A stretch of 64,000 nucleotides of DNA from Thermodesulfobacteriota bacterium. GTDB taxonomy: Bacteria > Desulfobacterota_D > UBA1144 > Nemesobacterales > UBA2774. The translations under genes were made by a program, and so were the position numbers. Within the stretch, counting starts at the first letter, position 1. Each line of letters starts with the position of its first letter. Shown here piece by piece: positions 7,755 to 64,000 of the stretch. Under the pieces are notes generated by a model. The model was not told the origin of the DNA and did not search any database. It saw only the letters and a program-made list of their open reading frames with translations. The stretch spans positions 25,120-89,119 of the forward strand of contig OZ244197.1 of the NCBI GenBank assembly GCA_965216785.1, in the 5' to 3' direction.

Positions 7755-7908
7755 GGTTCTAATATATAGCAAGCTCTGTTAATCTATAATTTAATCTATT
7801 ACATGTCTGAACACATACTAGGTGTTAAACTATTTACATTAATTAAATCGAGAACAGCATTGTATCCAAACTTTACATAATTGGCTTAATAGAGTTAGGT
7901 AAGCACAA

Positions 7909-8715: not shown

Positions 8716-8730
8716 TGTAAAAGCATTATA

Positions 8731-12985: not shown

Positions 12986-13065
12986 ACAGAATGCAGTTTA
13001 AACTCAGCCTCGGTGTTGTACCCATAATCTGTTATTAGTGACCTGCAGAAAAATCAAGTATAATG
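12986..13065. repeat. Direct repeat copy 2 (non-coding remnant of the GT2 3' end)
   Basis: See 7671-7750. Together the two copies bracket the ~5.2 kb segment carrying the methyltransferase and the 1356-aa fusion gene. Confidence 0.6.
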
Positions 13066-13102
13066 AATTCGCATTCTCACCCCTAACAGGCACATATTAT
13101 CA

Positions 13103-13876: not shown

Positions 13877-14597
13877 CACAGTCATAGAGTTTCAAGACGT
13901 GTGGAAGAAATACTCCACACAGGACATTTTCCATAAATCCATAAGGGATGAGATCGCCAATATATTTTCCAAGACCGACAGAGAAAACCTCGGGCACGGA
14001 GAGTTTTGGGCTTTAAAGGGGATTAGTATGTCGATAAAAAGGGGTGAGTGCATAGGATTATACGGACCCAATGGTTCTGGAAAATCTACGATTTTAAAAC
14101 TGATAGCATCAGTCACTTTTCCAAACAGAGGAGAGGTTAAAGTGGGAGGCAGAATAGCCCCGTTAATATCTGTAGGTGCTGGCTTTCATCCTGATCTTAC
14201 AGGAAGAGAGAATATTTACACCAATGGAACTATAATTGGAATGACTATCAAAGAAGTAAGAGATAAAATAGAGGATATCGTTCAATTCTCGGATATCGAT
14301 GAGAAGTTTATTGATATGCCAGTTAAGAAATATTCAACCGGTATGAATGCGCGGCTTGGCTTTTCTATTGCAATTCACAGTAGTGCGGAGATAATATTAA
14401 TCGACGAAATACTCGCTGTTGGAGATGAAGCTTTTCAGAAAAAATGTCTAACTAAGATCGAAGAGCTAATTGAGAAAAAAAGAACCATAATTATCGTGTC
14501 TCATAATAAAGACAGGCTCCGAGAATTGACTCACAGAATATTATTTATTCAAACAGGTGAAATAATTGATTCAGAATACCAAGAAAAGGTACTATAA
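13860..14597 (+). CDS. wzt: ABC exporter ATP-binding protein (short Wzt lacking the C-terminal glycan-binding domain)
   Basis: Walker A GPNGSGKST, signature YSTGMNARLGF, Walker B IILIDEILAVGD. At 245 aa it has no carbohydrate-binding extension. Confidence 0.85.
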   Translation: MQMSSNTVIEFQDVWKKYSTQDIFHKSIRDEIANIFSKTDRENLGHGEFWALKGISMSIKRGECIGLYGPNGSGKSTILKLIASVTFPNRGEVKVGGRIAPLISVGAGFHPDLTGRENIYTNGTIIGMTIKEVRDKIEDIVQFSDIDEKFIDMPVKKYSTGMNARLGFSIAIHSSAEIILIDEILAVGDEAFQKKCLTKIEELIEKKRTIIIVSHNKDRLRELTHRILFIQTGEIIDSEYQEKVL

Positions 14598-14626
14598 TTT
14601 ATGTCATCACATTATTCAAAGAGGAT

Positions 14627-16054
14627 ATGATGGGATATAACCCAAAAGTAGCAATCGTAATAGTTACATGGAACAAAAAGAAGTATGTAGTAGATCTACT
14701 GAACTCACTAAAAGACATTAACTATAAAAACTATGAAATATTTGTAGTAGATAATGCGTCTACAGACGATACTTGCAAAGTAATAAAAGAAAAGTATCCA
14801 TATGTGGATTTAATAGAGAATGAGGAAAATCTTGGGGGAACCGGCGGATTTAACACTGGGATGAAGTACGTTCTTGAGAAGGGCGGCTATAAGTATATAT
14901 GGCTCTTGGATAACGATGCAGTGGTAGAGAAAGATACACTAATCGAGCTTGTTAAAGTTATGGAAAACGACAACGGCGTAGGTATTACAGGTTCTATAAT
15001 AATGGAACCTGACAAGGAAATGATAGTTGAGCTCGGAGCATATGTATCATGGTCTATTGGAACATGGAAGCCAAATATGCGGAATAACAGAATAAGCAAA
15101 ATGGAGCATCTCGAGAATGCAGAGGTCGATTATGTAGCTGCGTGCTCGTCTCTAGTACGTACTGAAGTTCTTGAAGAAATCGGAGTAATGGATGAAAGAT
15201 ATTTTATACATTGGGATGATATTGACCTCTCTCTGAGAGCCAAGGCTGCCGGTTATAAGGTAATGGCATCACCAAAGTCTAAAGCTTATCACGGGATCGA
15301 GGACAAACCCATTAACCCTCTAATGTCATATTATGACATTAGAAACGGGCTACTTACAATCACAAAACATCAAGACGGTTTAAGCAGGTTTATATATATA
15401 ATGAACATGCTGAGGGGAACGAGTAAGGGTATCGTATACTCTATGTTAAGCGGACTTCACAATACTTCTAAGCTCCTGATTCGTGGGCCTATAGATTTCA
15501 TAAGGGGCAAATTTTATAAAACTAATATTCAGGTGATCAAAAGTGAATATGATGACCCGAAAGTTAGAAAATATAAAATAGAAGATTTACCGCTCAATAA
15601 TAATTCTAAAGTGATAATTCAACCTAATGCAAGCTACGCAGTCATTAAAAATATGGTACAAGAACTAAGAGAACTATATCCCGACTGCCATATTAGCTTA
15701 CTGATACAGCAAGACAGACAAGAGCTTTTTAAAGGCCTTAAGATTGACCGTTTTATTACTTTTGAAGGATACAGACAATCAACTATACAAACTATTTCGG
15801 TACTCAACAAGATACTACAATCGAATTATGATATTTGCATCAGCCCAAGCCGTTCACTTCTTCCGTTCTCACATGCTGTAAAAAAATACTTCTTGTATGA
15901 TCATCAAAATGACTATTTTGTAAAGAGTAATGAAAATTTATTTGCATCCTGGAAGCTCTTCGTATCATTCTTTGCGGGGGAGTTACTAGCATTTATTCTT
16001 TTACCCTTCGTATATCTTAAGAGCTTTCAATATGAGACAGTAAAGAGCTCTTAA
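14627..16054 (+). CDS. Glycosyltransferase family 2 (rhamnosyltransferase-like) with ~230-aa C-terminal domain of unknown function
   Basis: N-terminal GT-A motifs: VIVTWNKK, FVVDNASTDDT, LLDNDAVV. The C-terminal half has no recognisable motif. Confidence 0.7.
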   Translation: MMGYNPKVAIVIVTWNKKKYVVDLLNSLKDINYKNYEIFVVDNASTDDTCKVIKEKYPYVDLIENEENLGGTGGFNTGMKYVLEKGGYKYIWLLDNDAVVEKDTLIELVKVMENDNGVGITGSIIMEPDKEMIVELGAYVSWSIGTWKPNMRNNRISKMEHLENAEVDYVAACSSLVRTEVLEEIGVMDERYFIHWDDIDLSLRAKAAGYKVMASPKSKAYHGIEDKPINPLMSYYDIRNGLLTITKHQDGLSRFIYIMNMLRGTSKGIVYSMLSGLHNTSKLLIRGPIDFIRGKFYKTNIQVIKSEYDDPKVRKYKIEDLPLNNNSKVIIQPNASYAVIKNMVQELRELYPDCHISLLIQQDRQELFKGLKIDRFITFEGYRQSTIQTISVLNKILQSNYDICISPSRSLLPFSHAVKKYFLYDHQNDYFVKSNENLFASWKLFVSFFAGELLAFILLPFVYLKSFQYETVKSS

Positions 16055-16108
16055 CTTACATCCACAAAATTATTTGAGAGAAACAAATTGATTTAGAGAT
16101 AACAGGCT

Positions 16109-17020
16109 ATGTACTCTAAATTACCAAACTTTTTCATAGTAGGTGCTGCAAAATCAGGCACAACATCAATTTTTGCATATCTGTCTCAACACCCAGAAAT
16201 TTTTTTTAGCCCTCTTAAAGAGCCTAAGTTCTTTTCTGTCTCAGCAAACACATTTCCTCATAAAGGACCTGGTGATAGTGAAGTTGACAATACTATAATT
16301 AAAGATAAGCACGATTACCTTAATCTGTTTAAAGGTGCTAAAGATGAAAAAGTCATTGGGGAAGCTTCAGCTGATTATTTATATTTCTATAAGATTGCAG
16401 CACCTTTGATATACGAATGCAACCCTAATGCAAAGATACTTATAATTCTGAGAAACCCGGCTGAAAGAGCCTTTTCCGCTTATCGACACATGCTGAAAGA
16501 CAAAAGAGAAAGCCTCTCATTTGAAAACGCCATTGAAGCTGAAGAAAGTAGGATGGACAATAATTATGAGTTCATATGGTTTTACAAAGACGTTGGTCAT
16601 TACTATCACCAAGTCCTGGAATATTTAAAGACTTTCAATAAAGGTTCAGTAAAAATTTGCCTTTTCGAGGATTTAACAAAGAATTCAAGCGAAGTTACAA
16701 GGGAAATTTTAAAGTTCCTTGAAGTTGATGAGTGCTTCTCACCGGATATAAGCGAAAAACATAATGTATCGGAGATAAAACTTAACGAGTCGTTAGACCA
16801 ATTCCTAAGCAGGTATAATCATCCTGTTAAAAATTTGCTTCGCCCCTTATTCCTCAACACTTTAGGTAAAGATAATACAGAAAGATTAGTGAATTATTTC
16901 AAAGGTAAGAATGTTCTTAGAATGAGATCAAAAACGAGGAAATCCCTGATTAATTTATACAGGGATGATATTATAAAACTCCAAGATTTAATAAAGCGTG
17001 ATCTATCGTCTTGGCTTTAA
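16109..17020 (+). CDS. Sulfotransferase (PAPS-dependent, carbohydrate sulfotransferase-like)
   Basis: 5'-PSB loop FIVGAAKSGTTS and 3'-PB motif ILRNPAERAFSAY. 303 aa. Confidence 0.8.
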   Translation: MYSKLPNFFIVGAAKSGTTSIFAYLSQHPEIFFSPLKEPKFFSVSANTFPHKGPGDSEVDNTIIKDKHDYLNLFKGAKDEKVIGEASADYLYFYKIAAPLIYECNPNAKILIILRNPAERAFSAYRHMLKDKRESLSFENAIEAEESRMDNNYEFIWFYKDVGHYYHQVLEYLKTFNKGSVKICLFEDLTKNSSEVTREILKFLEVDECFSPDISEKHNVSEIKLNESLDQFLSRYNHPVKNLLRPLFLNTLGKDNTERLVNYFKGKNVLRMRSKTRKSLINLYRDDIIKLQDLIKRDLSSWL

Positions 17021-45537: not shown

Positions 45538-48066
45538 TCATGAAATGGCCGGAAGATCGGCTACAGAACTGAATTTTCTGAGAACCTCTTCTAATAGGCC
45601 CGGGTATTCAGAGAGCTCGGGGTCGGCCCTGACAAGATCGAACGCTTCTTCTCTGGCCTCGCTTAAGATCCTAACATCTCTCAAGAGATTCGCGAACATG
45701 AACTGAGGTAGACCGGACTGCTTTGTGCCGAGGAAATCACCAGGGCCGCGTATTTGTAAATCGGCCTCAGCTATCTTAAACCCGTCTGAGGTCTGCTCCA
45801 TAATTGTAAGCCTCTTGTCGGCGTCCTCTGAGCGCTTGAAACCTGAAAGCAGAATACATATAGAATCGTGCTCTCCCCTTCCGATCCTGCCCCTTAGCTG
45901 ATGGAGCTGGGTGAGACCGAAGCGCTCTGCGTTTTCTATAACCATTACGGCGGCGTTCGGAACATCGACCCCTACCTCAATGACCGTTGTCGAGACAAGA
46001 ATCTGTAAGTGGTTTGAGATGAATCTCTTCATTACGGCTTCTTTTTCCTCGGTCTTCATCCTGCCGTGGAGGAGCCCTACTTTGTACTCGGGGAAGACGT
46101 CATTACTTAACTCCTCCGCCATTTGAGTTGCGTATTTCAAATCTTTGAAATCAGGATTCTCGGACTCTTCAATCATTGGATACACAACGTAGGCCTGTCT
46201 TCCTTTCTGAATCTCCTTCCTTACGGTTTCATATGCTTTTTCACGCGAGCCTTTGTGATCATAGTAGAGTTTTGTTTTAATTTTCTTTCGTCCCGGTGGG
46301 AGCTCGTCCAGGACCGAGACGTCGAGGTCGCCGTAAACCGTAAGGGCAAGTGTGCGCGGTATGGGTGTTGCCGTCATGACCAGCACATCGGGGTTTGTGC
46401 CCTTACTCATAAGCTCGGCCCTTTGCATTACACCAAAACGGTGCTGCTCGTCTATGACAACGAGCCCGAGGTTCTTGAAGTCCACTTTTTCCTGAAGGAG
46501 CGCGTGAGTGCCGACTGCTATCTGCGCTTCGCCCGACTGAAGAGCTTTGTAGTAGGTATTTTTCTCGCTCTTTCCGAGGCCGCTTTTGAGAAATACGACG
46601 CGCATACCCATAGCTTTTACATAGCTCAACACTGAGGCTAGATGCTGCTCCGCCAGGATTTCCGTCGGGGCCATGAACACTGCCTGGTAGCCGCACTCTA
46701 CTGCCTTTAGTATAGATAGCACGGCAACTATTGTTTTACCGCTGCCGACATCGCCCTGAAGGAGCCTGTTCATTGGTGTCTCAGAGCGCATGTCGTTTTC
46801 TATCTCGGAAACTGCTCTTTTCTGAGCCTCCGTGAGATCGAATGTGAGGCGGGTGAGGAGTTTTGATGTAAGCTTTCCCGTGGGTGAAAAGGTTATCCCG
46901 GGAAGCCTTGCGACGTCACGTTTCTTGAGCGCAAGGCCAAGCTCCGTTAAAAAGAACTCGGAGTAGGCAAGCGTCTTATGCGGCTGCGAAAGATAAACGG
47001 AGTCCGCATCTGCTAGGTCCACTACACGATCGCCCCGGGCCGGGAAATGGACCCTTTCAAGCGCGTTATCAAAAGGGAGAAGCGCTCTATTTTTGTTAAC
47101 GTATTCGGGGAGACTGGATTTTAGCGCCGGGCTGTACGTGTCGACGACAAACTTCATGATACTTCTCATCCGTCTCTGCCCTATACCTTCGGTTAAAGGA
47201 TATATGGGAACAATGCGGTTAAAATGGACGTTGTCGTGGTCTATATCCTCCCCTTTATCAATTACCTCTATATCCTCAGGTCTCGGGTGAACCACCTGAA
47301 GCGCGTCCCTGTATCCGAACGAGACCTCGCCGGTGAGTATTACGGAAGCCTCTTTCTTGTAGGCCGCCCTTAGATATTTCTCACTGAATTTAAACCATAC
47401 GAGGGTAACCATCCCCGTACCGTCAGATACGACGACCTGATACATGGAGCCTCTTCTGGTGCGCACCCTGCCGGAGAGCATTATCTCACCCATAAAAGTC
47501 TCACGCTCTCCGGCTACTAGCTTTGAGATGCTCTTTACAGTAGTTCTGTCCTCGTACTTTCTGGGGAAATAGTAGAGCGCGTTTTCGATATTCTCTATAC
47601 CCTTTTTCTTTAGAAGCGATGCTATTCTGGGCCCTACCCCCTTTACGTACTGTATGGAGATTTCAGACAAATCATCACCCTTTGACACAGTTTCATTGCT
47701 AATACGCTCTGGGGTTTTAGAATTACGAGAAGGTTCTTTTTTCTCCGTGGGTTTTGGCGTTCCTGCCTCTTTGGCCACATCTTGCGCCGCCTCGCGCATC
47801 ATTGCCCGCACATCGTGAAGAGCTCTTTTAATTAGCTCTTTTTTATCAGGCTCTGAAAGCCCGTCATAACCTGAAAATGAATCTTTAAGGGACTGGAGGA
47901 CTGATATGGTCTTTTGGGATAACGGAAGTGAGAGCGCTTTTAGTGTGAGATCGTCTACGAGCCCCGACAGCGACTTTACTTTATCTATATTTGAATAATT
48001 GTTCTTTGAGATAAATGTAAGCGGTTTCTCTAGCGTAGTTAATATTGCTCTTAGCTCATCTGACAT
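45538..48066 (-). CDS. recG: ATP-dependent DNA helicase RecG (with ~140-aa N-terminal extension)
   Basis: Wedge/OB domain and SF2 helicase motifs (GDVGSGKT, DEQHRFG, C-terminal TRG-like). 842 aa. Confidence 0.9.
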   Translation of the reverse strand: MSDELRAILTTLEKPLTFISKNNYSNIDKVKSLSGLVDDLTLKALSLPLSQKTISVLQSLKDSFSGYDGLSEPDKKELIKRALHDVRAMMREAAQDVAKEAGTPKPTEKKEPSRNSKTPERISNETVSKGDDLSEISIQYVKGVGPRIASLLKKKGIENIENALYYFPRKYEDRTTVKSISKLVAGERETFMGEIMLSGRVRTRRGSMYQVVVSDGTGMVTLVWFKFSEKYLRAAYKKEASVILTGEVSFGYRDALQVVHPRPEDIEVIDKGEDIDHDNVHFNRIVPIYPLTEGIGQRRMRSIMKFVVDTYSPALKSSLPEYVNKNRALLPFDNALERVHFPARGDRVVDLADADSVYLSQPHKTLAYSEFFLTELGLALKKRDVARLPGITFSPTGKLTSKLLTRLTFDLTEAQKRAVSEIENDMRSETPMNRLLQGDVGSGKTIVAVLSILKAVECGYQAVFMAPTEILAEQHLASVLSYVKAMGMRVVFLKSGLGKSEKNTYYKALQSGEAQIAVGTHALLQEKVDFKNLGLVVIDEQHRFGVMQRAELMSKGTNPDVLVMTATPIPRTLALTVYGDLDVSVLDELPPGRKKIKTKLYYDHKGSREKAYETVRKEIQKGRQAYVVYPMIEESENPDFKDLKYATQMAEELSNDVFPEYKVGLLHGRMKTEEKEAVMKRFISNHLQILVSTTVIEVGVDVPNAAVMVIENAERFGLTQLHQLRGRIGRGEHDSICILLSGFKRSEDADKRLTIMEQTSDGFKIAEADLQIRGPGDFLGTKQSGLPQFMFANLLRDVRILSEAREEAFDLVRADPELSEYPGLLEEVLRKFSSVADLPAIS

Positions 48067-48258
48067 TGATAAGATTTTACAGTGACTTATGAATCTATTT
48101 CAAGTTTTGGAGCAGGGAAGTCTTAATCTATTGCTATGAAAAGATACACGAGTAGCTGTGTAATATTGCACAACTCTTGAGCTTTGGAGTCTCCTTTGTG
48201 CAAACACTGATTATCTAAGCTGCTGTGATTACAACAAATATTGAAATTTCATATAAGT

Positions 48259-48274
48259 GGCATATATATTGCAA
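48259..48274 (+). promoter_or_regulatory. Sigma-54 (-24/-12) promoter motif TGGCAT-N5-TTGCA
   Basis: gTGGCATatataTTGCAaat has correct GG-N10-GC spacing. It is intergenic, ~115 nt upstream of and co-oriented with the sigma-factor gene. Confidence 0.55.
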
Positions 48275-48387
48275 ATTTTAAGATAAAAACCGGATTAGGT
48301 AGGATGGCGGAGGATATTTACAGACTTAATAATTGTCCGCTCGGGGTTTATTCACACCAATTTATATCTAAATAAAGGAGAGTGACA

Positions 48388-49530
48388 ATGAAATATCAAG
48401 AAGCTCAGACAGCTCAGAACGAAAGCCCTTCCTTTAGTGATACATATGATAAATCCGCGGACAGTGTGGGCAATGAGAGGGAGCAGTTCTTCAATGTCCA
48501 AAATAGCGAAAGCGATTCGATAAAAGAAAACCACTCTGTACTGCGCCCACAGGAAAATAGAGCCCATACGGACGACCAATTCAGAATAATGAACGATTAC
48601 TTTAGTGATATAGCCAATGAACCCTTACTTACCCTGAGAGAAGAAATAGAGCTTCCGACAAAGATTAAAAAATGCGAATCTAAAGCAAAACAGATAGAGT
48701 CGTGGCTCGAATCAGAGGAGCAAAGCAAACAAAATGAGAGGGGCTGTCAATGCTTAATAAAAAACACTCAGAGATTACAAGCCTCACATAGAGCGTACAC
48801 AGAAAGATCCAAACAGCTTAAGAAGAGATTTGCTAACGCTAACCTGAGGCTGGTCATAAGTATAGCGAAGCGATACGTGAATCATGGCCTTCCTTTTCTA
48901 GACCTCATACAGGAAGGAAATATAGGGCTTATGAGGGCTATAGACCGATTTGATCATACAAAGGGATACAGATTCTCGACCTATGCTTCCTGGTGGATAT
49001 ACCAGTCTATTACAAGGGCGATATTGGTGCATAGAGGAGCAGTTAGGGTCCCCGTATACCTGCTTGAGGTAACGAACAGAGTCTACAGAACGAGATCAAT
49101 CCTACTTAAAGAAACCGGAAAGAACCCCACTTCTGAAGAGATAGCGGAGCAGTCCGGTGTGCCGATTAAGTATGTTAAGCGAATACTTAAAATTACAAAT
49201 GAATCAGTTAGCCTGGACTCGCCTATTGACGGTGAAAAGAGAACGCTCTACGATTTCATAGAGAACAGCGATTCGATTTCCCCTGACTATATTATCGTTG
49301 AGGATGAGCTCAAAAAAAGCATACGTCATTCCCTGTCGCTACTGAGCCCTAAAGAAGAAGAGGTACTTAGAATGCGGTTCGGAATAGACAGGAAAGATAC
49401 CGTGACACTGGATGACATAGGCAAAAAATTTCAACTTACGCGAGAACGAATCAGGCAGATTGAGAAAAAGGCTCTAAGGAAACTATCTGTTTGCAAGATG
49501 AGGGAAGCTCTTAAAAACTTCCGCACATAG
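48388..49530 (+). CDS. RNA polymerase sigma factor, sigma-70 family (group 2/RpoS-like size)
   Basis: Region 2 motifs [19 protein letters not shown] and [11 protein letters not shown], plus region 4 [30 protein letters not shown]. Start set at the ATG 7 nt after AAGGAGAG; the track uses an upstream GTG. Confidence 0.85.
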
Positions 49531-49706
49531 AGCTATTTGATAAGAAATCTGGAAATAATAGCAACTTTGTTTAATTTGCTACTGCTTTAAATAACACTAC
49601 TTCACTTGTGTGATTTGACACATTTGAGTGAATCTTATATAATGTTTTTTCACAATACCTGCACTAAGCAATTGATATTATTATATATTGCAAAATAACA
49701 GTGTCT

Positions 49707-49722
49707 TGGTACGGAAATTGCT
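49707..49722 (+). promoter_or_regulatory. Weak sigma-54-like motif TGGTAC-N5-TTGCT
   Basis: cTGGTACggaaaTTGCTc has correct spacing, but C to T at -24 position 4. ~57 nt upstream of the small secreted protein gene. Confidence 0.3.
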
Positions 49723-49778
49723 CTAATCAATAATGCCGGCCATAGGTGGCAGGCAAATCAATCCAGGAGGGTTACATT

Positions 49779-50006
49779 ATGAGATTACTCACCTATTTGT
49801 TCGCGCTCATGCTGGTAATGGGCGTTTCATTCGGCGGGGCTTCAATTATCACGAGCCAGCCAGTTATGGCAGAAGAAGGCGAAACTGCAGGCGGCGAAAT
49901 GACAGATGAGGCCGCAGGCGATGACGAAGGCGCGGAAGCAGCTACAGATGAAACCGCTGAAGGCGAAATAGAAGGCGGCGAAATGGCTGATGATGCCGAG
50001 AAATAA
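49779..50006 (+). CDS. Small secreted acidic Glu/Gly/Ala-repeat protein
   Basis: Signal peptide MRLLTYLFALMLVMGVSFGGASI. The mature part is ~45 aa with repeated GGEM[TA]D[ED]A. AGGAGG lies 8 nt upstream. A GC hairpin terminator follows. Confidence 0.5.
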   Translation: MRLLTYLFALMLVMGVSFGGASIITSQPVMAEEGETAGGEMTDEAAGDDEGAEAATDETAEGEIEGGEMADDAEK

Positions 50007-50399: not shown

Positions 50400-50711
50400 C
50401 TATGTATTATCAGTATCGTTAGAATTATTGGTATCGTCGTCAGCCCGTCTGGAAAAAAGCCCTTTTATCTCTTTTCCGAGAATAGACCAGAAATCTTTAA
50501 GATTGGTATATTTATGGTCGATTTCTTCCAAATAATCGTCTAGATTGTCGATGGCTTCGTGCTGCTCCTCTTCCTTCTCTTTATTTAACTGCTGCTTTAG
50601 ATTTGTCAGAGAGTCTTCAAGATCGGTTATTTTACTCTCAAGCTCTTTTTTGCGGTCATTTGTCAATTTCATATTCATCACCTTACGCTCTCCTGGCTTC
50701 AATCTACTCAC
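50400..50711 (-). CDS. Coiled-coil protein coupled to the Na/Pi cotransporter (possible PhoU-like partner)
   Basis: Start overlaps the nptA stop (ATGA). The protein is heptad-rich. Confidence 0.4.
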   Translation of the reverse strand: MSRLKPGERKVMNMKLTNDRKKELESKITDLEDSLTNLKQQLNKEKEEEQHEAIDNLDDYLEEIDHKYTNLKDFWSILGKEIKGLFSRRADDDTNNSNDTDNT

Positions 50712-51913
50712 CAGCCAAGTATTTGGCTTACAAAGATAAATATCAAAGGCACTATGAAAAATACTGAAAAAATATACGCAACAACATAAAGCTTATTCTT
50801 TACGGCAGCGTAAGCAAGCTTTTGTGCCGCGATTAGCGGTATTGTTCGCAAAAACGGAATACCGAATATCACTACGACACCAAGCACATTATAGACCAGA
50901 TGGATTAATGCTATCTCTAACGCAAAAATAGCATTTGACCCGGTAATCGCGGTTGCGGCAAGAAGCGCCGTTATACATGTACCTATATTAGCTCCCAACG
51001 TAAACGGATACACTTTTTTCAGACTAAAGACACCGCTCCCCGCAAGCGGAACGATGAGGCTCGTTGTCGTAGATGATGATTGTACAAGAACAGTAATAAG
51101 CGCTCCCGCGGTAATCCCTGAGAGGGGACCGCGTCCCACGGCGCTGTGCAGTATTTCCTTTGCGCGCCCGACCATTAAAATCCTGAGCAATTTGCCTATG
51201 AACGTGATTACCAGAAATATCAGCGCTATGCCGATCACTATCATCGCTATCCCCGCTATAATTTCGGGAAGCCATCCTAGTACGGTTTCATGCAAAAAGT
51301 TAACCGGAGGGTTAATTATAGGCTTCATAAAATTCAGCCCTTTCATGGACATTGGGTTACCGCCAACCAGGATCTTGGCCAGAAACGCGCCTATTTTGTC
51401 CAAAATACCAAAAGCTATTTCCAGAGGCAGGAATATCAGAACATTCATAATATTAAAAGAATCGTGGACTGTAGCTGCCGCAAACGCTCTTTTGAATTCA
51501 TTACGTTCTTTTACATGCCCTAAGCTGACAATGGTATTCGTTATCGTCGTGCCAATATTCGCGCCCATCACCATCGGAATGGCTGTGGTTACGGGAAGTC
51601 CACCCGCTACAAGACCAACTATAATTGAAGTGACGGTGCTCGAGGATTGAACAAGCGCAGTGGCAAAGGTGGCGATGAGAAGCGCGGTTATGGGGTTACT
51701 TGCAAAGGCAAAAAGCTGTTTTGCCTGATCGCCTGCGGCCAGTTTAAAGCCACTCCCGATTAAAGCTACTGCAACCAATAACAAATAAATGAGACCAATT
51801 ATGAAAAGCCACTGTACCCATTTGGATTGAGTAGAAATTCCGGATAAACCTTCCGACTTATCGGCATGTCCAGTAACTGTTGAGGGTATGGTTTTACCTC
51901 TTGTGATATCCAT
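50708..51913 (-). CDS. Na+/phosphate cotransporter family protein (NptA-like)
   Basis: Two Na_Pi_cotrans repeat units with QSSSTVTSI / QSSSTTTSL motifs. Confidence 0.85.
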   Translation of the reverse strand: MDITRGKTIPSTVTGHADKSEGLSGISTQSKWVQWLFIIGLIYLLLVAVALIGSGFKLAAGDQAKQLFAFASNPITALLIATFATALVQSSSTVTSIIVGLVAGGLPVTTAIPMVMGANIGTTITNTIVSLGHVKERNEFKRAFAAATVHDSFNIMNVLIFLPLEIAFGILDKIGAFLAKILVGGNPMSMKGLNFMKPIINPPVNFLHETVLGWLPEIIAGIAMIVIGIALIFLVITFIGKLLRILMVGRAKEILHSAVGRGPLSGITAGALITVLVQSSSTTTSLIVPLAGSGVFSLKKVYPFTLGANIGTCITALLAATAITGSNAIFALEIALIHLVYNVLGVVVIFGIPFLRTIPLIAAQKLAYAAVKNKLYVVAYIFSVFFIVPLIFIFVSQILGW

Positions 51914-52040
51914 TTATAATCTCAGCAATAACTTTAACCAAATACGCTTTATGTGCAAAAGGTAAGCTACAACATAAATCCAGGGTTATATCGTTTTGAC
52001 AACCGGATAATTAAATGTATTAGGGAGTTCCAAGAGGAAA

Positions 52041-52085
52041 TGGTCGGGGTGGCCGGACTTGAACCGGCGGCCTCTGCGTCCCGAA
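52041..52085 (-). other. Orphan tRNA 3'-end fragment (T-arm + acceptor strand + encoded CCA), candidate integrative-element att remnant
   Basis: The reverse strand reads ...GCAGAGGCCGCCGGTTCAAGTCCGGCCACCCCGACCA, with a canonical T-stem/loop GCCGG-TTCAAGT-CCGGC. No matching 5' acceptor strand (CGGGGTG), D-arm or canonical anticodon arm lies upstream. Confidence 0.6.
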
Positions 52086-52361
52086 CGCGTAGGGACAAAA
52101 AGTCCTAAACGTTTGATATAACTATAAGTTCCTGAATATATTCGAATAAAAGAGATTAACCACAATTCTAATATATCGATTGTTTAGAATGTTTTGATTT
52201 AGTATAGACACCTATTTGGACACCTAATCGACTGAATATGCAGAGTGGGTCAAACCTCACCAAACATAGCGCCGACAACTATTATTGATTGGTATATCTT
52301 TGGTTCAATGTTTATGCTTGGCATCTTTGCATTTATACATGCTTAATTTTATCTCAATCGA

Positions 52362-53318
52362 CTATTTCTTATTTACCTGTAGAAACCCGATATTTTGGTG
52401 CTTATCAAAAGACATAATGATATTATCAATATCATATTTGGGAATATCGCTCGTACAATCTAACAATTCAAACTGATCACGACCAATGAGTTCCCAATCC
52501 ATAAAGCTTTCCATATAACCTATTTCTCTCATTTCTGGTAGAACATTTGTAATTAATAGCACACCTTGCGGCGATAGTTTCTGAAATAGTTTGTGAGTAA
52601 GCTTTTGTGCTGTTCTTTGTTTCAAATAATCATATAACCCTGAAGCATAAATTAAGTCATATCCTGAATGCTTGAAATTGTTTCTCAAAATATCGACAAC
52701 AGAGACAGCACTAGCCTGGACACTACTACCAGAGTAATTTCTGTTCACGTAGTTAACACTTTCTATGTCCTGGTCTATTGCAGTGTATTCTTCTATTTCA
52801 TCATTTCTAAAAGATTCAGATAGTTCAATCTCTCTTAGATGACCGCACCCTATCGACAGAACTTTTGTCTTATCGGTAGCACGGGCAACGCTGTCTATGA
52901 CTCTAGCAATATATTGCCTCCGAAGGCGTACGGAATCACATGCAGTCGTATTGAAAGTGTATTCTCGGATTTCGTTACCGAGTTCGTTAACACCATCAAA
53001 ATTCACACTTGGATGTCCATATATCATATCCAATAGGTATGCATCTCCAGCATATCCCCTGGGCTTATTGTAAGCCCTCTCTGTTATAGGGTCTTGATAT
53101 ATAAATTCTTTTATAGGATGGTCCATTAGATAATTCCCTACGATATATTTCCACTCACCTACAGAGCAATTTAGCTTTAGATGTCTTAACCCGGCGTAAA
53201 AATTATCTAGCGCCTCAGTAATTTTACTATTATTTATTTGATTGTATGCTTCCTCTAGTAGACAAGACGTAAAGTCATCACTATATATTTTCCGGGCTAA
53301 ATTATTTTGTGTCATCAT
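52362..53318 (-). CDS. Class I SAM-dependent methyltransferase with ~130-aa N-terminal extension
   Basis: Motif I VLSIGCGHLRE, acidic DQD, and post-I LIYASGLYDYL. Confidence 0.6.
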   Translation of the reverse strand: MMTQNNLARKIYSDDFTSCLLEEAYNQINNSKITEALDNFYAGLRHLKLNCSVGEWKYIVGNYLMDHPIKEFIYQDPITERAYNKPRGYAGDAYLLDMIYGHPSVNFDGVNELGNEIREYTFNTTACDSVRLRRQYIARVIDSVARATDKTKVLSIGCGHLREIELSESFRNDEIEEYTAIDQDIESVNYVNRNYSGSSVQASAVSVVDILRNNFKHSGYDLIYASGLYDYLKQRTAQKLTHKLFQKLSPQGVLLITNVLPEMREIGYMESFMDWELIGRDQFELLDCTSDIPKYDIDNIIMSFDKHQNIGFLQVNKK

Positions 53319-53781: not shown

Positions 53782-54576
53782 ATGAGGATATTGATATTTC
53801 TGAGTGTTTTATTTAGCGGTTTATACTTTTCACAGGATGTAACTGCCGAGGGTATAGTATTCTGCCAGAGTAAAATCTTTAAAGTCGTAAGATACAGGGG
53901 CGGCGAGCCCGGAAGCTGTAAACGATTTGAAAATGAGATTGTTATAACTACCGAAATCGGTGAGGCTGGACCTCCCGGGCCTCAGGGACTAGCTGGACCT
54001 GCAGGACCTCAAGGTGATCCTGGACCGGATGGACCAGCCGGACCTGAGGGGCCACAAGGACCGGCAGGACCTATGGGAGATGTCGGACCGGAGGGCCCAC
54101 CAGGTGATATAGACCAAGGTCTTTTGGATGATCTTCAGGAACAAATTGATATTCTAGCAAGTAAGGCATGTGGAGATGGAGAATTAGATATAATTTTTGG
54201 TGAAGAGTGTGATGATGGAAACGAATTAGACCAAGACAGTTGTTCATCTGATTGCTTAATCACAGGCCCAAGTGGTCCTTTTTGCGGTAATAGAACAATT
54301 GAAGATCCTGAAGTATGTGATGCCGATATAATTCTGACTAGTTGTATAGACTTGGGATTTGTAACAGGAGACCTAAGATGTTCGGACGACTGCCTATCTT
54401 TTGATACATCAGGTTGTCTTGACTCAGTATGCGGCAATAACAACCAGGAAAGTGGTGAAGTTTGTGATGGAACAGATTTGGTTGGTATAGATTGTACTGA
54501 CTTTGGATTCACAGGAGGTTCCTTAGCATGCGGTTTTGACTGTGTTAGTTTTAATACATCTAATTGTTCTAATTGA
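53782..54576 (+). CDS. Secreted collagen-like (G-X-Y) / Myxococcus-type cysteine-rich repeat protein
   Basis: Signal peptide. About 17 uninterrupted GXY triplets ([50 protein letters not shown]). Four cysteine-rich repeats of the CG[DN]G..E.GE.CDDGN / C.D.GF..G.L.C..DC.SF.TS.C type. Confidence 0.75.
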
Positions 54577-58068: not shown

Positions 58069-58818
58069 ATGGCATTTGAAGAAATAGAGAATAAAGTTGT
58101 TCTAATAACAGGGGGCTCGGAAGGTATAGGATTTGGGATTGCAAGAACTTTCGTCAATGCCGGTGCTAGAGTAGCTATCACAGGACGAAATATAAATAAA
58201 TTGGACAAAGCCAAAGAGCTTCTTGGAAATGATGTATTTTCGATTAATGCAGATGTTGCTCAAACCGAAAATTCCGCTGCCACTATTGAGAGAGTTGTCA
58301 GCGAATTTGGGAGATTGGACATACTAATTAACAACGCCGGAGAGGGGAATCAAAAACCGTTATCTAAATGCGATATTAACGACTATGACTTTGTTTTTAA
58401 TACGAACGTAAGGGGGTTATTCGCTCTGACTCAGGCCGCAACCCCTGAGCTTAAAAAAACAAGTGGGAATATCATAATAATAGCTTCGTCACTCGGTTTA
58501 AGACCGGCGCCCATGTACGGGGTCTATTCGGCTTCCAAAGCAGCTGTTATCATGTTCGCTCAGATGTGGGCTAAGGAACTTGCTCCGGACGTAAGAGTCA
58601 ATTCGATAAGCCCCGGCGGTGTAGATACACCGTTATGGGACAAGCTGGTTGGTAAGGAAAAAAAGGAAGATGTTCTCAGCTTTGTCAAAGAACGTCATCT
58701 GGTAAAAAAGCTCGGCAGCCCGGATGAGATCGGAGGAGCGGCTCTTTACCTTGCTACTGAAGACTGGGTAACCGGAAGTAATTTGGTGATAGACGGCGGT
58801 CTTTTCTATTCGATATGA
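58069..58818 (+). CDS. Short-chain dehydrogenase/reductase
   Basis: TGGSEGIGFGIA Rossmann motif, NNAG, and catalytic S...YSASKAAV. Confidence 0.85.
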   Translation: MAFEEIENKVVLITGGSEGIGFGIARTFVNAGARVAITGRNINKLDKAKELLGNDVFSINADVAQTENSAATIERVVSEFGRLDILINNAGEGNQKPLSKCDINDYDFVFNTNVRGLFALTQAATPELKKTSGNIIIIASSLGLRPAPMYGVYSASKAAVIMFAQMWAKELAPDVRVNSISPGGVDTPLWDKLVGKEKKEDVLSFVKERHLVKKLGSPDEIGGAALYLATEDWVTGSNLVIDGGLFYSI

Positions 58819-58886: not shown

Positions 58887-59035
58887 TTAAAATAACTATT
58901 TTCTGTTGTTAAGTTCCTTAAATCTCCCAAATTTTAAGTATATATTCAAATTCCAAGATTCACCCTCCTGGCAATCTCTGTAAGCAGGGTTGACACTTCT
59001 GTCAAATTATTCAATGTTTTCAGATGTTTAGAATT

Positions 59036-59051
59036 TGGCACACTGCTTGCA
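59036..59051 (+). promoter_or_regulatory. Sigma-54 promoter, perfect consensus TGGCAC-N5-TTGCA
   Basis: tTGGCACactgcTTGCAaaa. The GGAGG RBS and the ATG of the YdhR-like gene follow within 55 nt. Confidence 0.65.
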
Positions 59052-59088
59052 AAAATATTAAATCAAAAATCACTTGGAGGTGATCGAT

Positions 59089-59430
59089 ATGATAGTAGTT
59101 CAGATTATTAACTTTAACTTAAGCGGTATGAGTGAGACGGAGTATGAGCAGACCTGTGATAATTTAGCCGGCTCATTCGCTGAGGTTCCAGGACTTCTGG
59201 CCAAATACTGGCTATCTGACCGGGCCAATAACAGTTACGGCGGGGTGTATTTATGGGAAGACCGTACGTCGCTTGAGCGTTTTACCCGCTCAGAGCTTTT
59301 TAATAGTGTTGCCACTCATCCCAATCTGGTAAACATCTCTTCACAGGTATTCGATGTGCTGGAGGGCCCTACCCGAGTTACAAGGGGCTTTGACGCTGTA
59401 AGCGCAATTGAAAAAGCCCGTGCGGTTTAA
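59089..59430 (+). CDS. YdhR-like putative monooxygenase (Dabb/ABM fold)
   Basis: VVQIINFNLSGMSETEYEQ...GLLAKYWLSD..NNSYGGVYLWEDRTSLERF..S.LF resembles YdhR (PF08803). Based on recall only. Confidence 0.5.
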   Translation: MIVVQIINFNLSGMSETEYEQTCDNLAGSFAEVPGLLAKYWLSDRANNSYGGVYLWEDRTSLERFTRSELFNSVATHPNLVNISSQVFDVLEGPTRVTRGFDAVSAIEKARAV

Positions 59431-59457
59431 GTACAAAAAACTCAAGGAGGTGTACAA

Positions 59458-59733
59458 ATGAAATTTATAGCGGTCCATCCACTAAATAGTCCTATAAGAG
59501 AGGACCAGATTACCGACGCAGCCAGAGCGTGCAGGGCGGAGAACAGTAACAACGCCTGCTGGATAGACAGCTGGACCCAGCTTAACGACGAAGGAGAGAT
59601 CACAGTTATCTATTGTCAGTACGACGCAAAGGACGCAGAATCCGTAGCAGATCTTCTTAAAAAGGGAGCACCAGACCTTCCGGTCGAGGGTATATACCTT
59701 ATGGGTAAGCTCGAAGCAGAAAATTACAGGTAA
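59458..59733 (+). CDS. DUF4242 (SCO4226-like, putative nickel-binding) protein, copy 1
   Basis: MKFIAVHPLN...CWIDSW..DEGEITVIYCQYDAKDAESV...EGIYLM. Confidence 0.6.
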   Translation: MKFIAVHPLNSPIREDQITDAARACRAENSNNACWIDSWTQLNDEGEITVIYCQYDAKDAESVADLLKKGAPDLPVEGIYLMGKLEAENYR

Positions 59734-59742
59734 AAACAGTTC

Positions 59743-59779
59743 GGGCGTTAGGTACGTATTGTATCCAACGCCCTTATAC
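59743..59779 (+). terminator. Possible terminator hairpin
   Basis: gggcgtt-N17-aacgccc followed by ttatacc. Confidence 0.35.
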
Positions 59780-59796
59780 CTGGGCGAGAAAGTGTC

Positions 59797-59826
59797 TTGA
59801 ATTAAGAAAATCTAAAGTGATATAAT
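59797..59826 (+). promoter_or_regulatory. Sigma-70-like promoter TTGAAT-N18-TATAAT
   Basis: About 19 nt before the GGGGAGG RBS of the EBP-STAND gene. Confidence 0.45.
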
Positions 59827-59844
59827 GTCTTAGGGGAGGTTGAC

Positions 59845-62505
59845 ATGCAGCGTTCCGCGGTAGAAAAAAATAAGATCATCGGCTCAAGCGCAAAGCTTTC
59901 TGAGGTCGTGGACTTAATTTTGAAAATCGCCGATACACCGACCAACATACTTATCACTGGTGAAAGCGGCACAGGAAAGGAGCTTGCCGCAAGTCTACTG
60001 CATGAAAAGAGCAGCCGCTCAGATAAACCTTTTATGGACATCAATTGTGCGGCTATACCCGAGACGCTTCTGGAGAGTGAGCTCTTCGGTATTGAAAAAG
60101 GGGTCGCGACGGGGGTTGAGAGAAGAGAGGGTAAAATCGAGCTATCCGCAGGGGGGAGCCTTTTCCTTGACGAAATAGGCGACATGAGCCTCGGCGCTCA
60201 GGCAAAGCTGCTCAGGGTCCTTCAGGAAAGGAGCCTTAAAAGAGTAGGCGGCAAAAGCGACATCGCCGTTGACCTGAGGATAATCGCAGCCACGAACAAA
60301 GACCTTCTTTCGGAGATAAAAAAGGGGAAATTCAGAGAGGATCTTTATTACAGGATCAACGAAGTACATATTAAGATGCCTTCCCTGAGGGAAATACGTG
60401 AGGATATACCCAGTTTGTCCGAGCATTTTCTTCATTCACTCTGTCATGAGCTCAATATGAATACACTCCGGTTTAGTGATTCAGTCCTGGACCGACTATC
60501 GAGCTACAGCTGGCCCGGAAACATCAGAGAGCTTAAAAACGAGGTTAAAAGGGCAGCGCTCCTGGCCGATGGCCATATAATAGAAGAAAGAGATTTATCT
60601 CCAGATATTTTGAATTTCTTTAAAAACAAGGATGCCAGTCAAGGTCTTGTAAGTGAAGCAACTTCGCTACCTCGAGCAGTAGAAGAGCTCGAAATCCAGA
60701 TGATAAAGCAAGCCCTAAAATCATGTCAGGGAAACAGGGTAAAGGCCTCTCAGATGCTTGGAATATCAAGGCAGGGACTAATAAAAAAGATAAGCAGATA
60801 CAGGATAGATCAGGGTAGCTCTCAGAAAAAGAAAATTTCAGACCGATTGCTCAAGTCAAGCAAAAGATCGTTTGTCGGAAGAGCAAATGAGATTAAAGAA
60901 ATAAAGGATCTAATCAAGTCCAAGAAGTCTACTTACTATGTCTTATTTATTCACGGCATAGGAGGGATTGGGAAGACAAGTATGGTTAAGGAACTTTTAA
61001 ATTCCTTGGACGCTAAGGTTAGTACAATTTACCTTGATTGTAGAGACATAGAGCCGACGGAGAACGGTTTTCTAACATCGCTGGGTAATGAACTTAATCT
61101 CAAGAGCACCAGAATTACAGTAGAGCGTGTTTTAAAGAGTTTGGAGAAGAGAAAGGAAAGAACACTACTGGTACTCGACACCTATGAGACTTTCGGACTT
61201 ATGGATACCTGGCTCAGAAAGACTTTTATACCATCTCTACCTGAGAATTTTCTTACAATAATCATCGGAAGACACCCGCCAAATAATTCATGGTTTACAA
61301 GCTCAGGCCTTGGGACTCTTATTAAGAGTATTGAGCTTGAGGAGCTTTCTTATGAGGACGCGATCAACTTCTTAATACTCCGTGGGCTTACGTCAGAAGA
61401 AGCAGAAAAGACCTATTCATTCGCCCGGGGGCACCCGATGGCTCTTGAGCTAGCAGCAAATTCGGTATCATCAAAACCCACTCGAGACATTTCATACAAA
61501 TCATTCCCTAACATTATTCATCAGCTGACGCAGGATTTCCTGCTGGGTCTAGATAAGAAGACCAGAAAGACGCTCGAGAGCCTCTCTTTAGTGAGGCGCT
61601 ATGACGACACCCTACTGAAACACTTACTAAACGAAGACTACGAAGAAGGTATCTTTGACAATCTCTTAGAGCTCCCATTCGTCAGCCTAACAGGAGAAGG
61701 ATGCTTGATACACGATATAGTAAGGGAAACTATAGCTCGTGAGCTATCACTCCGTGATCCGAAGAGGTATAAGGATTCGAAAAAAGCCGCATGGGTATAT
61801 CTGAATGAACAATCGCTTGCGAAGCACGGTGAATCACTCTGGCAAGCTACTGCCGATTTGCTATACACTATAGAAAACCCGGTTGTAAGGGATGCTTTCT
61901 TTCCTAAAGGTGCAATGGGTTATGTCGTCGAGCCACTATCTCATGAGGATAAAGAGCATGTAATTGATATTGTGCGTGAGTCCGAATCGGGTGAACCTGC
62001 CGATATAATTGAGAACTGGCTCACATATTATCCGGGCAGTTTCAGTGTTGTTAAAGATATAACCGGTGAAGTTGAGGCGTTCTTTATTTTATGCGAGCCT
62101 AATGAGATCGATAGGAGCCCTTTATCTGAGGATAAAATACTCGACGTTTGGTTTAAGCACTTGGAATCTAATCCTCTAGATTCCACAGACAAAGCGCTAT
62201 TTCTAAGGAGGTGGCTCAGTAGAGGACATGGTGAAGGTCTTTGTCCTGCACAAGGAGCTTCATGGCTCGACGTTAAGAGAAACTACATGGAGCTTAGACC
62301 TAAATTAAAAAGGCTTTATACAACACTGACTGATTTAGAAAACTATAAGCCTGTCGTATTACCGTTAGGTTTTTCTCTTTTAGATAGTTCAGAGATTGAG
62401 CTCGAAGAAACAACTTACTATTCCGCCATTATTGATTTCGGACCGGACAGCGTCGACGGATGGCTCAGAAAACTTATCGGTCTTGAGCTTGGTATTGGTC
62501 AGTAA
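59845..62505 (+). CDS. Fusion: sigma-54 enhancer-binding AAA+ core + Fis-type HTH + NB-ARC/STAND NTPase + C-terminal domain of unknown function
   Basis: aa 10-245 are an EBP AAA+ core (GESGTGKE, ESELFGIEKG-GVATGV, GGSLFLDEIGDMS, SWPGNIRELKN). HTH at ~aa 285-315. P-loop FVGRANEIKEI...IHGIGGIGKTSM, Walker B LLVLDTYE and GHPMAL at aa 330-560. It has no N-terminal receiver, GAF or PAS domain. Confidence 0.8.
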   Translation: MQRSAVEKNKIIGSSAKLSEVVDLILKIADTPTNILITGESGTGKELAASLLHEKSSRSDKPFMDINCAAIPETLLESELFGIEKGVATGVERREGKIELSAGGSLFLDEIGDMSLGAQAKLLRVLQERSLKRVGGKSDIAVDLRIIAATNKDLLSEIKKGKFREDLYYRINEVHIKMPSLREIREDIPSLSEHFLHSLCHELNMNTLRFSDSVLDRLSSYSWPGNIRELKNEVKRAALLADGHIIEERDLSPDILNFFKNKDASQGLVSEATSLPRAVEELEIQMIKQALKSCQGNRVKASQMLGISRQGLIKKISRYRIDQGSSQKKKISDRLLKSSKRSFVGRANEIKEIKDLIKSKKSTYYVLFIHGIGGIGKTSMVKELLNSLDAKVSTIYLDCRDIEPTENGFLTSLGNELNLKSTRITVERVLKSLEKRKERTLLVLDTYETFGLMDTWLRKTFIPSLPENFLTIIIGRHPPNNSWFTSSGLGTLIKSIELEELSYEDAINFLILRGLTSEEAEKTYSFARGHPMALELAANSVSSKPTRDISYKSFPNIIHQLTQDFLLGLDKKTRKTLESLSLVRRYDDTLLKHLLNEDYEEGIFDNLLELPFVSLTGEGCLIHDIVRETIARELSLRDPKRYKDSKKAAWVYLNEQSLAKHGESLWQATADLLYTIENPVVRDAFFPKGAMGYVVEPLSHEDKEHVIDIVRESESGEPADIIENWLTYYPGSFSVVKDITGEVEAFFILCEPNEIDRSPLSEDKILDVWFKHLESNPLDSTDKALFLRRWLSRGHGEGLCPAQGASWLDVKRNYMELRPKLKRLYTTLTDLENYKPVVLPLGFSLLDSSEIELEETTYYSAIIDFGPDSVDGWLRKLIGLELGIGQ

Positions 62506-62536
62506 AATTAATCTAATTTATTATTGGATTAAGCAA

Positions 62537-62576
62537 TTAGGGTATAGCGTGTAATTCTCAGCACGCAATACCCTAA
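62537..62576. terminator. Bidirectional terminator (15-bp near-perfect hairpin between convergent genes)
   Basis: ttagggtatagcgtg-taattctcag-cacgcaataccctaa, with T-runs on both flanks. Confidence 0.5.
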
Positions 62577-62911: not shown

Positions 62912-63967
62912 TCAATACCGAGACATAATATTCTCATGAAAACTATTCATAGCTTTTATAGGATCAGGCACAGGGGCTATCATTATCTGATTTATACCCT
63001 GTGACTCCATCCTTTTAATCGTGTCGATGATCTCGCTGCTGGTTCCAACGAGAACTGATGCTTCTATCATCTCCGGCGTGAGCACATCGTTAAATTCCTC
63101 GTTCCAGAAAAAATAGTTACTGTAGTAGGCAAGGTGTCTTCTTTCGGGGTTGTCCAGGTCTGAAGGATACGCGTTTGTGAATTTCATGACCCCGTCCCTT
63201 AAGCTCTCAGGAAGCGGCTCGCCCGGAGTTGTACCTGTGTTTTTCCCGTGGTTTTCAAGTGACTTCGCGAGTATATTCAGACATACAGAGACCATAGGTC
63301 CCAGCTGATGTCTGACTGATTCAGTTTCAAGAGATTCGCCTTCATCCAGAATATAAAAAGCGCTAAGAACCATGGTATATATGTCCTCAGGGTTTCTTCC
63401 TGATTTCTTCGCGCCCTTTCTGATTCGCTCCATACAATAATCTATGTACTCCTCGTCTATCGCCCCAAGAAGCATTACACCGTCCGCAAGCTCTCCGGCA
63501 AGCTCAAGAGTCTTTGGTCCGCTTCCGGCCATAAATATTGGTATTTCGTCTTTGGTATTTATAAAGCCCATATCTGGACTCAGGAATTTAACAGGTCTCT
63601 TCCTCTCCTGAGATAAATACTTATCCGGGCCTTCACTGTATTCCGCCTCTTCACCCTTGAGCATTTTTCTATATATGCCAACGTCATTCCGAAGCTCATC
63701 AAGCTTAGCTATCGGCATACCCCAGGCCCGTCTCGCGGTGTTACCGGTACCGATCCCGAGAACACACCTGCCGGGCGCAAGCTCGTTTAGAGTAGCCATG
63801 GCTCTTGCGGTAACTGGAGTCATCCTGGCGCGCGGGCATGTGACGCCAGGGCCAAGCTTTATTTTTTTTGTATTGGTGGCGCAAAGGGTTAACGTTTCAA
63901 AAACATCGCTCCCTATGCTGTCATACGGCATAAAATGTGTGAACCCCTTATCTTCGCCATGGGCCAC
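62912..63967 (-). CDS. Luciferase-like monooxygenase (LLM-class flavin/F420-dependent oxidoreductase)
   Basis: TIM-barrel LLM family with an LGIGTGN loop. 351 aa. Confidence 0.75.
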   Translation of the reverse strand: MAHGEDKGFTHFMPYDSIGSDVFETLTLCATNTKKIKLGPGVTCPRARMTPVTARAMATLNELAPGRCVLGIGTGNTARRAWGMPIAKLDELRNDVGIYRKMLKGEEAEYSEGPDKYLSQERKRPVKFLSPDMGFINTKDEIPIFMAGSGPKTLELAGELADGVMLLGAIDEEYIDYCMERIRKGAKKSGRNPEDIYTMVLSAFYILDEGESLETESVRHQLGPMVSVCLNILAKSLENHGKNTGTTPGEPLPESLRDGVMKFTNAYPSDLDNPERRHLAYYSNYFFWNEEFNDVLTPEMIEASVLVGTSSEIIDTIKRMESQGINQIMIAPVPDPIKAMNSFHENIMSRY

Positions 63968-64000
63968 CCATTGCCATGAATGTATATGTGAGGGAAAATG

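Follow-up and report, generated by a model that had tools for sequence, protein, structure and literature searches.

A displaced 3' fragment of tRNA-Pro(CGG) as the probable distal boundary of a genomic island in an uncultured Dadabacteria-like lineage

A 48-nt fragment of tRNA-Pro(CGG) lies on the minus strand at positions 52041-52088 of the window, by which we mean the whole 64-kb stretch of DNA analysed here. We consider it quite probable, from sequence comparison, that this fragment is the scar left by an integrase at a tRNA-Pro(CGG) gene and that an island extends to its right. An attR-type integration scar with an island running rightward had already been proposed in an earlier reading of the letters alone (hereafter the sequence-only reading), and the proposal is well supported by the synteny of the left flank with relatives, the lack of synteny on the right, the structure of an island at the same tRNA gene in a comparator locus (L007) and the mobility of the cargo. 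Scars of this type are common and well understood, and the fragment reveals no new biological system or mechanism.

In the course of events that we propose, a tyrosine integrase would have inserted the island into a chromosomal tRNA-Pro(CGG) gene, with strand exchange in the anticodon loop. The original 3' portion of the tRNA (positions 29-76) would thereby have been pushed away from the rest of the gene, to become the 48 nt at 52041-52088, and the distal junction would follow the order island arm, core, original tRNA 3' end. To the left of the fragment would lie the ancestral neighbourhood, consisting of a variable Na/Pi transporter block and then an 86-aa ORF, a sigma-70 factor and RecG. To the right, from 52089, would lie at least 12 kb of island cargo, from a methyltransferase to a luciferase-like monooxygenase (LLM). 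An island-borne copy of the 48 nt would regenerate an intact tRNA-Pro(CGG) at the far end, beyond base 64000, and an integrase, possibly decayed, would stand beside this regenerated tRNA. The features of the window that bear on this model are the following.

45538-50006, no strand assigned: conserved downstream flank with RecG helicase, a sigma-70 factor and an 86-aa ORF (synteny with seven relatives; Pfam)
45538-48066: RecG, within the conserved flank
48382-49530: sigma-70 factor, within the conserved flank
49746-50006: 86-aa ORF, within the conserved flank
50400-51913, minus strand: Na/Pi cotransporter and 103-aa ORF (Pfam), lineage-specific, between the fragment and the conserved flank
51914-52040, no strand assigned: sequence directly 3' of the fragment, on the original chromosomal side; 97.6% identical in L036 and continuous with the left flank
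52041-52088, minus strand: displaced 3' fragment of tRNA-Pro(CGG), positions 29-76, with encoded CCA; putative attR-type core and B' side
52089-52361, no strand assigned: island-side spacer from the methyltransferase stop codon to the fragment, 273 bp of ordinary intergenic composition; presumed attP-derived arm
52362-53318, minus strand: class I SAM-dependent methyltransferase, the first cargo gene (Pfam; 72% ortholog in the same cluster in L028, L029 and L030)
53782-54576, plus strand: collagen-repeat protein (Pfam PF01391), syntenic in L028 and L034
54665-58036, plus strand: Zn-ribbon, class III nucleotide cyclase, AAA_16 (STAND), TPR protein (Pfam)
58069-58818, plus strand: short-chain dehydrogenase (SDR; Pfam)
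59074-62505, plus strand: YdhR-like, SCO4226-like and sigma-54 activator-STAND genes (Pfam), a three-gene block missing in L034
62588-64000, minus strand: 93-aa protein and LLM (Pfam)

Read along the minus strand from 52088 to 52041, the fragment comprises 3 bp of anticodon stem (GCG), the CGG anticodon loop (TTCGGGA), the 3' anticodon stem (CGCAG), the variable loop (AGGCC), the T-arm (GCCGG-TTCAAGT-CCGGC), the 3' acceptor strand (CACCCCG), the discriminator (A) and CCA. Intact tRNA-Pro(CGG) genes from 19 other genomes (loci L001-L019) agree with it at 48 of 48 nt over their positions 29-76, which bears out the sequence-only reading that a tRNA 3' fragment with an encoded CCA is present on this strand. 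That reading had the fragment end after about 37 nt, with the T-arm and acceptor strand only; its actual length is 48 nt, anticodon loop included, and it is because of this loop that the tRNA can be identified as Pro(CGG) and the crossover put in the anticodon-loop class. When a genome collection was scanned with a 42-nt core of the fragment, exact matches were obtained in 19 intact tRNA-Pro(CGG) genes, and all 19 fall inside complete tRNA-Pro genes of 75-78 nt with the anticodon CGG. BLAST of the 19 loci against the window gave 100% identity, ending at 52088 in every case, and of a full-length tRNA-Pro only bases 31-78 of 78 aligned, the rest being absent from the window. The fragment is not a chance match, as shuffled sequences give an expected count of 0.00 for its 3' 32 nt. 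The exact 48-mer was absent among IMG/VR viral contigs and common to several phyla in the genome-collection scan.

Neither a tRNA nor a tmRNA gene was found by ARAGORN in the 64-kb window, and ARAGORN and BLAST found no 5' half and no second copy of tRNA-Pro there, as would be anticipated from the earlier statements that the 5' half is missing and that the tRNA is not functional. The fragment lacks the complete cloverleaf, the 5' acceptor strand and the D-arm of a functional tRNA. Rfam gave no matches over the window at gathering thresholds and, at a permissive threshold, one partial match of 11.9 bits to the T-arm/acceptor part of the tRNA/tmRNA clan. On the island reading, the fragment has no function of its own and is a scar; it could still be usable as an att site.

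Seven loci from Dadabacteria or 'Thermodesulfobacteriota' MAGs (L005, L006, L009, L010, L013, L015 and L016) carry the 86-aa ORF, the sigma-70 factor and RecG downstream of an intact tRNA-Pro(CGG). Order and orientation are kept, and amino-acid identities to the left-flank genes of the window range from 60 to 86%; the closest locus on this side is L013 (Ca. Dadabacteria SZUA-126), with 85% amino-acid identity in the sigma-70 factor. Upstream of the tRNA, an M3 oligopeptidase and/or an aldo/keto reductase is found in 11 loci, several of which add a DUF547 protein, and no homologs of these three upstream proteins occur anywhere in the window. The upstream flank is conserved in part of the group only, other genes being found there in L005, L009, L013 and L016, and L013, the closest left-side relative, has an upstream flank unlike that of the other relatives. 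Beyond the fragment, then, stands the downstream tRNA flank of unoccupied sites, and the upstream flank does not adjoin it. In relatives, the left side corresponds to the ancestral flank downstream of the tRNA, and so the inserted DNA should lie to the right, from 52089, in agreement with the rightward element (from about 52086) that had been deduced from the orientation of the fragment.

The Na/Pi cotransporter block between the fragment and the conserved flank is absent from this place in all 19 comparator loci and present in L036. Its 103-aa ORF gives a weak MLKL_N-like match. The same slot downstream of the tRNA holds a PBP-like protein and a Cys-loop ligand-gated channel homolog in L013 and a 374-459-aa protein without Pfam matches in L016, L009 and L003, and there is nothing between the tRNA and the conserved flank in L006, L010 and L015. 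The stretch just downstream of tRNA-Pro(CGG) is thus variable, and it perhaps derives from older islands with lost repeats.

An island of the same geometry is found at L007 (CAVWAZ010000030.1, from the uncultured 'delta proteobacterium' MAG MFD09730.bin.2.52). Here, an intact tRNA-Pro(CGG), a tyrosine integrase remnant on the opposite strand (57 C-terminal residues), a homolog (67%) of p69, the 69-aa protein encoded ahead of the integrase in other members, a cargo of a DACNV/DAC-like cyclase and a cNMP-binding protein, and a 48-nt repeat follow one another within 2.8 kb. The second 48-nt copy is perfect and starts at the same nucleotide (G29) as the fragment in the window, the boundaries reading ...AATG|GCGTTCGGGA... 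in L007 and ...CTAC|GCGTTCGGGA... in the window. What follows the second copy (CCATTCATTTCAATTGCCCTCGCCTTTAGCG) has its homolog directly behind the intact tRNA in L016, and L016 therefore represents the empty site. The L007 island thus resembles that of the window in its target tRNA, 48-nt repeat, G29 boundary and geometry, as well as in a flank after the fragment that is homologous to the empty site; it differs in carrying other cargo, in being much smaller, and in that its proximal end is visible, with the deleted integrase and p69.

The same arrangement can be seen at L009 and L003, where the second copies are decayed and lie 0.5 and 2.2 kb from the tRNA, respectively, and the same integrase family is found directly behind tRNA-Pro(CGG) at L008 and L017. 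Together, these islands, scars and integrases show that one integrase family has targeted tRNA-Pro(CGG) repeatedly in this group, and the comparator genomes hold at least four independent occupied or scarred tRNA-Pro(CGG) sites. The same internal deletion, which leaves the last ~57 integrase codons and an intact 69-aa upstream gene, was observed at L007 (5044-7808) and L017 (5463-5912).

A near-identical strain (L034, L036), assembled from two read sets, allowed the two sides of the fragment to be compared. Over 3.9 kb of left flank it shares 99.1% identity with the window, against only 91-95% in the cluster, and the spacer between fragment and methyltransferase is 95.2% identical. Gene lists and BLAST show that L034, compared with window 58900-62550, is without the YdhR-like, SCO4226-like and sigma-54 activator-STAND genes. 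Together with the cargo-slot position of the cluster in L028 (below), these differences fit a flexible island and not a stable core region. In each of the two k=31 assemblies, the contig on the methyltransferase side breaks off after exactly 30 nt of the 48-mer, and the contig on the transporter side begins with exactly its last 30 nt. These breaks imply that a 48-mer with these boundaries is present in at least two contexts in the samples. One of these could be an intact tRNA-Pro of that genome, for which the breaks count as weak support, as tRNA-Pro genes of other organisms in the samples would give the same contig breaks and the 48-mer is not confined to one phylum.

The 12 kb to the right of the fragment have no counterpart at the tRNA-Pro locus of relatives. 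At the end of the window, the LLM (62912-64000) runs on for about 15 nt, with its start near base 64015 (orthologs have 367 aa); the stop-to-stop ORF reaches base 64000, and the listed 351-aa ORF starting at 63967 is thus truncated. The gene after the LLM in both relatives is a GAF-sigma-54 activator, which by analogy would lie just beyond the window here too and would bring the island to at least about 14 kb. No integrase homolog was detected in the window, in which at most part of the island, some 12 kb, would be visible (best tblastn E = 1.2), just as the sequence-only reading had stated, and no conjugation or replication genes were seen in the available 12 kb. We rejected the cargo as a recognised defence system after PADLOC returned only generic matches to cyclase and sigma-54-AAA domains. 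A metagenome scan with the LLM recovered only relatives of 65-82% identity, with no tRNA on them. In L020, L024 and L026, an LLM homolog (65-79%) occurs with a homolog of the sigma-54 activator-STAND protein in arrangements that differ, which suggests a functional link between the two.

The whole cluster can be found in the same order in L028, L029, L030 and L031. This order is GAF-sigma-54 activator, LLM, 93-aa protein, sigma-54 activator-STAND, SCO4226-like, YdhR-like, SDR, cyclase-STAND, collagen-like protein and methyltransferase. The tRNA-Ala(GGC) island of L028/L031 (ENA ERZ27237539 k141_1132349) shares the cluster of about 11 kb with the window at 72-84% amino-acid identity; at the nucleotide level, the window and the L028 group are about 73-76% identical, and the homology ends exactly at the methyltransferase stop (52362). 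Past the methyltransferase, the cluster of L028/L029/L031 is followed by p69, a 358-aa tyrosine integrase and, 27 nt later, the 3' end of an intact tRNA-Ala(GGC). This p69-integrase module belongs to the same family as the remnants at tRNA-Pro(CGG). Unlike in the window, however, the target is tRNA-Ala(GGC), and the cargo is reversed, so that the methyltransferase end lies beside the integrase and the intact tRNA and not beside a displaced fragment. An integrase ortholog (84%) with the identical tRNA-Ala junction is present on a 2.46-Mb contig (L037), where the cargo is different (czc-type RND efflux, P-type ATPase) and unrelated to that of the window; the cluster in L028 therefore occupies a variable cargo slot. 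The earlier assignment of the genes from the methyltransferase to the LLM to the element agrees with their absence from the tRNA-Pro locus of relatives, their place in the cargo slot of the tRNA-Ala(GGC) island and the variation of their content between near-identical strains.

The source genome, whose 3,118,197-bp contig also gives a 100% match to the methyltransferase, encodes a tyrosine integrase outside the window, P0135, which is 89% identical to the L028 integrase and which, on the evidence of L028 and L037, is more probably located at tRNA-Ala(GGC). An IS3-family-type transposase N-terminus (MARKRYTPEQIIRHLRQAEVL) is found at the contig end of L031 (1-62), about 4 kb beyond the LLM, and a similar sequence at the end of L018.

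Counted against the island reading are the lack of an intact tRNA-Pro and of an integrase within the available 12 kb, the lack of a GC or tetranucleotide anomaly to the right of the fragment, and the fact that the one known integrase of the source genome, P0135, belongs to a tRNA-Ala-associated clade. By analogy with the comparator islands L003 and L007, the island here may lack an intact integrase. Alternatively, an integrase-made island could have become a relic, its proximal end with the regenerated tRNA and the integrase having since been deleted, inverted or separated, so that the cluster is now fixed and immobile. Integrases were lost from comparator islands (L007 and L017 keep only the C-terminal 57 aa and L003 keeps none), the junction is common to strains whose cargo differs by 5-9% and is therefore not recent, and the absent compositional signature and the tRNA-Ala affiliation of P0135, the sole integrase of the family known in the source, would also fit; yet the fragment has kept 48/48 identity with the functional tRNA, whereas the older scars of L003 and L009 are visibly decayed, and we regard this history as improbable. 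A similarly small chance is given to the cluster being a portable signalling/defence cassette that travels between tRNA sites, tRNA-Pro(CGG) here and tRNA-Ala(GGC) in L028, both in Dadabacteria-like genomes. Such a cassette would be an integrase-less, att-flanked passenger mobilised in trans by p69-integrase modules (e.g. P0135), so that the element in the window would count as a CIME-like satellite rather than a self-sufficient island; in a variant of this scenario, tRNA-Pro(CGG) may be genuinely disrupted in this genome.

It is very unlikely that the tRNA-Pro(CGG) gene was broken by an event that was not site-specific, such as a deletion, an IS or an inversion, with no restoration, so that this genome would lack the isoacceptor and another tRNA-Pro would read CCG. 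Enterobacteria can do without tRNA-Pro(CGG) as long as they have tRNA-Pro(UGG), and both the IS3-type transposase N-terminus in L031 and the missing 5' half and second copy in the 64 kb would suit such a truncation. The break, however, falls at the classical anticodon-stem/loop sublocation of tyrosine integrases, and truncation is disfavoured because the break coincides to the nucleotide with the direct-repeat boundary of L007, as a random breakpoint would do about 1 time in 76. We attach hardly any likelihood to a functional RNA at this position, whether a tmRNA, a two-piece tmRNA, a split or intron-containing tRNA, or a tRNA-like 3' element of a transcript. The CCA is encoded, and a tmRNA model matches weakly over the T-arm/acceptor (E = 0.015), but these 11.9 bits compare with a gathering score of 47, and ARAGORN (permuted tmRNA included) and Rfam at gathering thresholds find nothing. 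Moreover, the acceptor strand is of the tRNA-Pro type and not the G3:U70 alanine type of tmRNA, no 5' acceptor strand that could pair with it (CGGGGTG) is found nearby, the 273 nt upstream show no more folding than shuffled sequences, and all 19 exact matches elsewhere are ordinary tRNA-Pro genes. ARAGORN, Rfam, BLAST and folding effectively refute a tmRNA and a split or intron-containing tRNA, and the earlier exclusion of a tmRNA holds.

Williams reportedly described, in 2002 (NAR 30:866), islands in tRNA genes with anticodon-centred attachment sites (class A). Read as an integrase scar with an island to its right, the locus resembles class A islands of the Islander type in having a displaced 3' tDNA fragment in tRNA orientation, an identity block (48 nt) from the anticodon stem/loop to CCA, the ancestral downstream flank on the fragment and a cargo of accessory genes. 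As in Islander, it is a tRNA gene fragment and not a complete gene, and its boundary falls at a recognised crossover sublocation, with identity beginning 3 bp 5' of the anticodon loop (G29). The Islander definition also needs a regenerated tRNA and an integrase, both of which would here fall outside the window, and the locus shows no compositional anomaly. Islander found a 3' tDNA fragment in 3,760 of 3,919 islands and anticodon-centred sites in 2,083 (PMC4383910). The anticodon-centred class makes up about half of all mapped tRNA islands (PMC4383910; 10.1101/2020.11.02.365908), and the sublocation classes of att sites have been reviewed (10.1101/2020.11.02.365908). The att sites of pSAM2 (Streptomyces) and ICEAfe1 (Acidithiobacillus) likewise span the anticodon loop, 19 bp around which are enough for the integration of ICEAfe1 (cited in 10.1101/2020.11.02.365908), but the hosts of these elements are unrelated and the 12 kb here show no genes for conjugation or replication.

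The sequence-only reading had also pointed to an AT-rich, unstructured junction of about 270 bp next to the fragment. Such a junction is present, as the 273-bp spacer has a GC content of 0.326 and folds like its shuffles (z = 0.14), but its composition is ordinary for intergenic DNA, with a GC content of 0.331 in the intergenic region across the fragment (51914-52040). Promoter and terminator matches in the spacer are at chance level, and it is plain intergenic DNA without a distinguishing property. Its similarity to the distal arm of the L007 island is not significant, and the significant tRNA-proximal similarity between L007 and L028 falls within the integrase coding region. The spacer contains a tandem direct repeat (GACACCTA, two copies at 12-nt spacing, window 52207-52226) that is kept in the near-identical strain and is a candidate protein-binding site. 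Arm-type integrase sites were rejected for it, as the alignment of the GACACCTA repeat with the L007 repeats scored 23, which 21% of shuffles equalled or bettered.

In this uncultured Dadabacteria-like lineage, the fragment gives the precise position of one edge of a flexible region, and it should be annotated as an island boundary rather than as a tRNA. That tRNA-Pro(CGG) is used repeatedly in an uncultured phylum and that one STAND-rich cluster occurs at two different tRNA sites is of mild interest; we flag this cluster, with its cargo rich in STAND-type signalling proteins, as one that may help studies of island traffic in the phylum.

A 15-nt stretch about 80 nt past the methyltransferase stop in L028 (11032-11046; CCATACGCGTTCGGG) matches the minus strand of window 52083-52097 at 14 of 15 bases, across the island/tRNA boundary CCCTAC|GCGTTCGGG (junction CCCTACGCGTTCGGG). 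As an unrecombined attP-like partner, this stretch was rejected: the blind local alignment scored 25 against 20.8 +/- 2.6 (maximum 30) for shuffles, outside these bases the 'fragment' matches no better than chance, and the orthologous locus of L037 does not have the motif. The match could be due to chance or be a relic or secondary att core.

A foreign composition, which is a supportive and not a defining feature of islands, was not observed for the inserted DNA. The comparison of 52-64 kb with the rest of the window that had been suggested earlier shows no anomaly, with a GC content of 0.421 to the right of the fragment against 0.442 to the left and with tetranucleotide distances within the normal range of the window. 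Lower-GC stretches (0.35-0.37, against 0.43-0.48 in their surroundings) were seen at window 7000-10000 and 13000-17000, and these may be other flexible regions.
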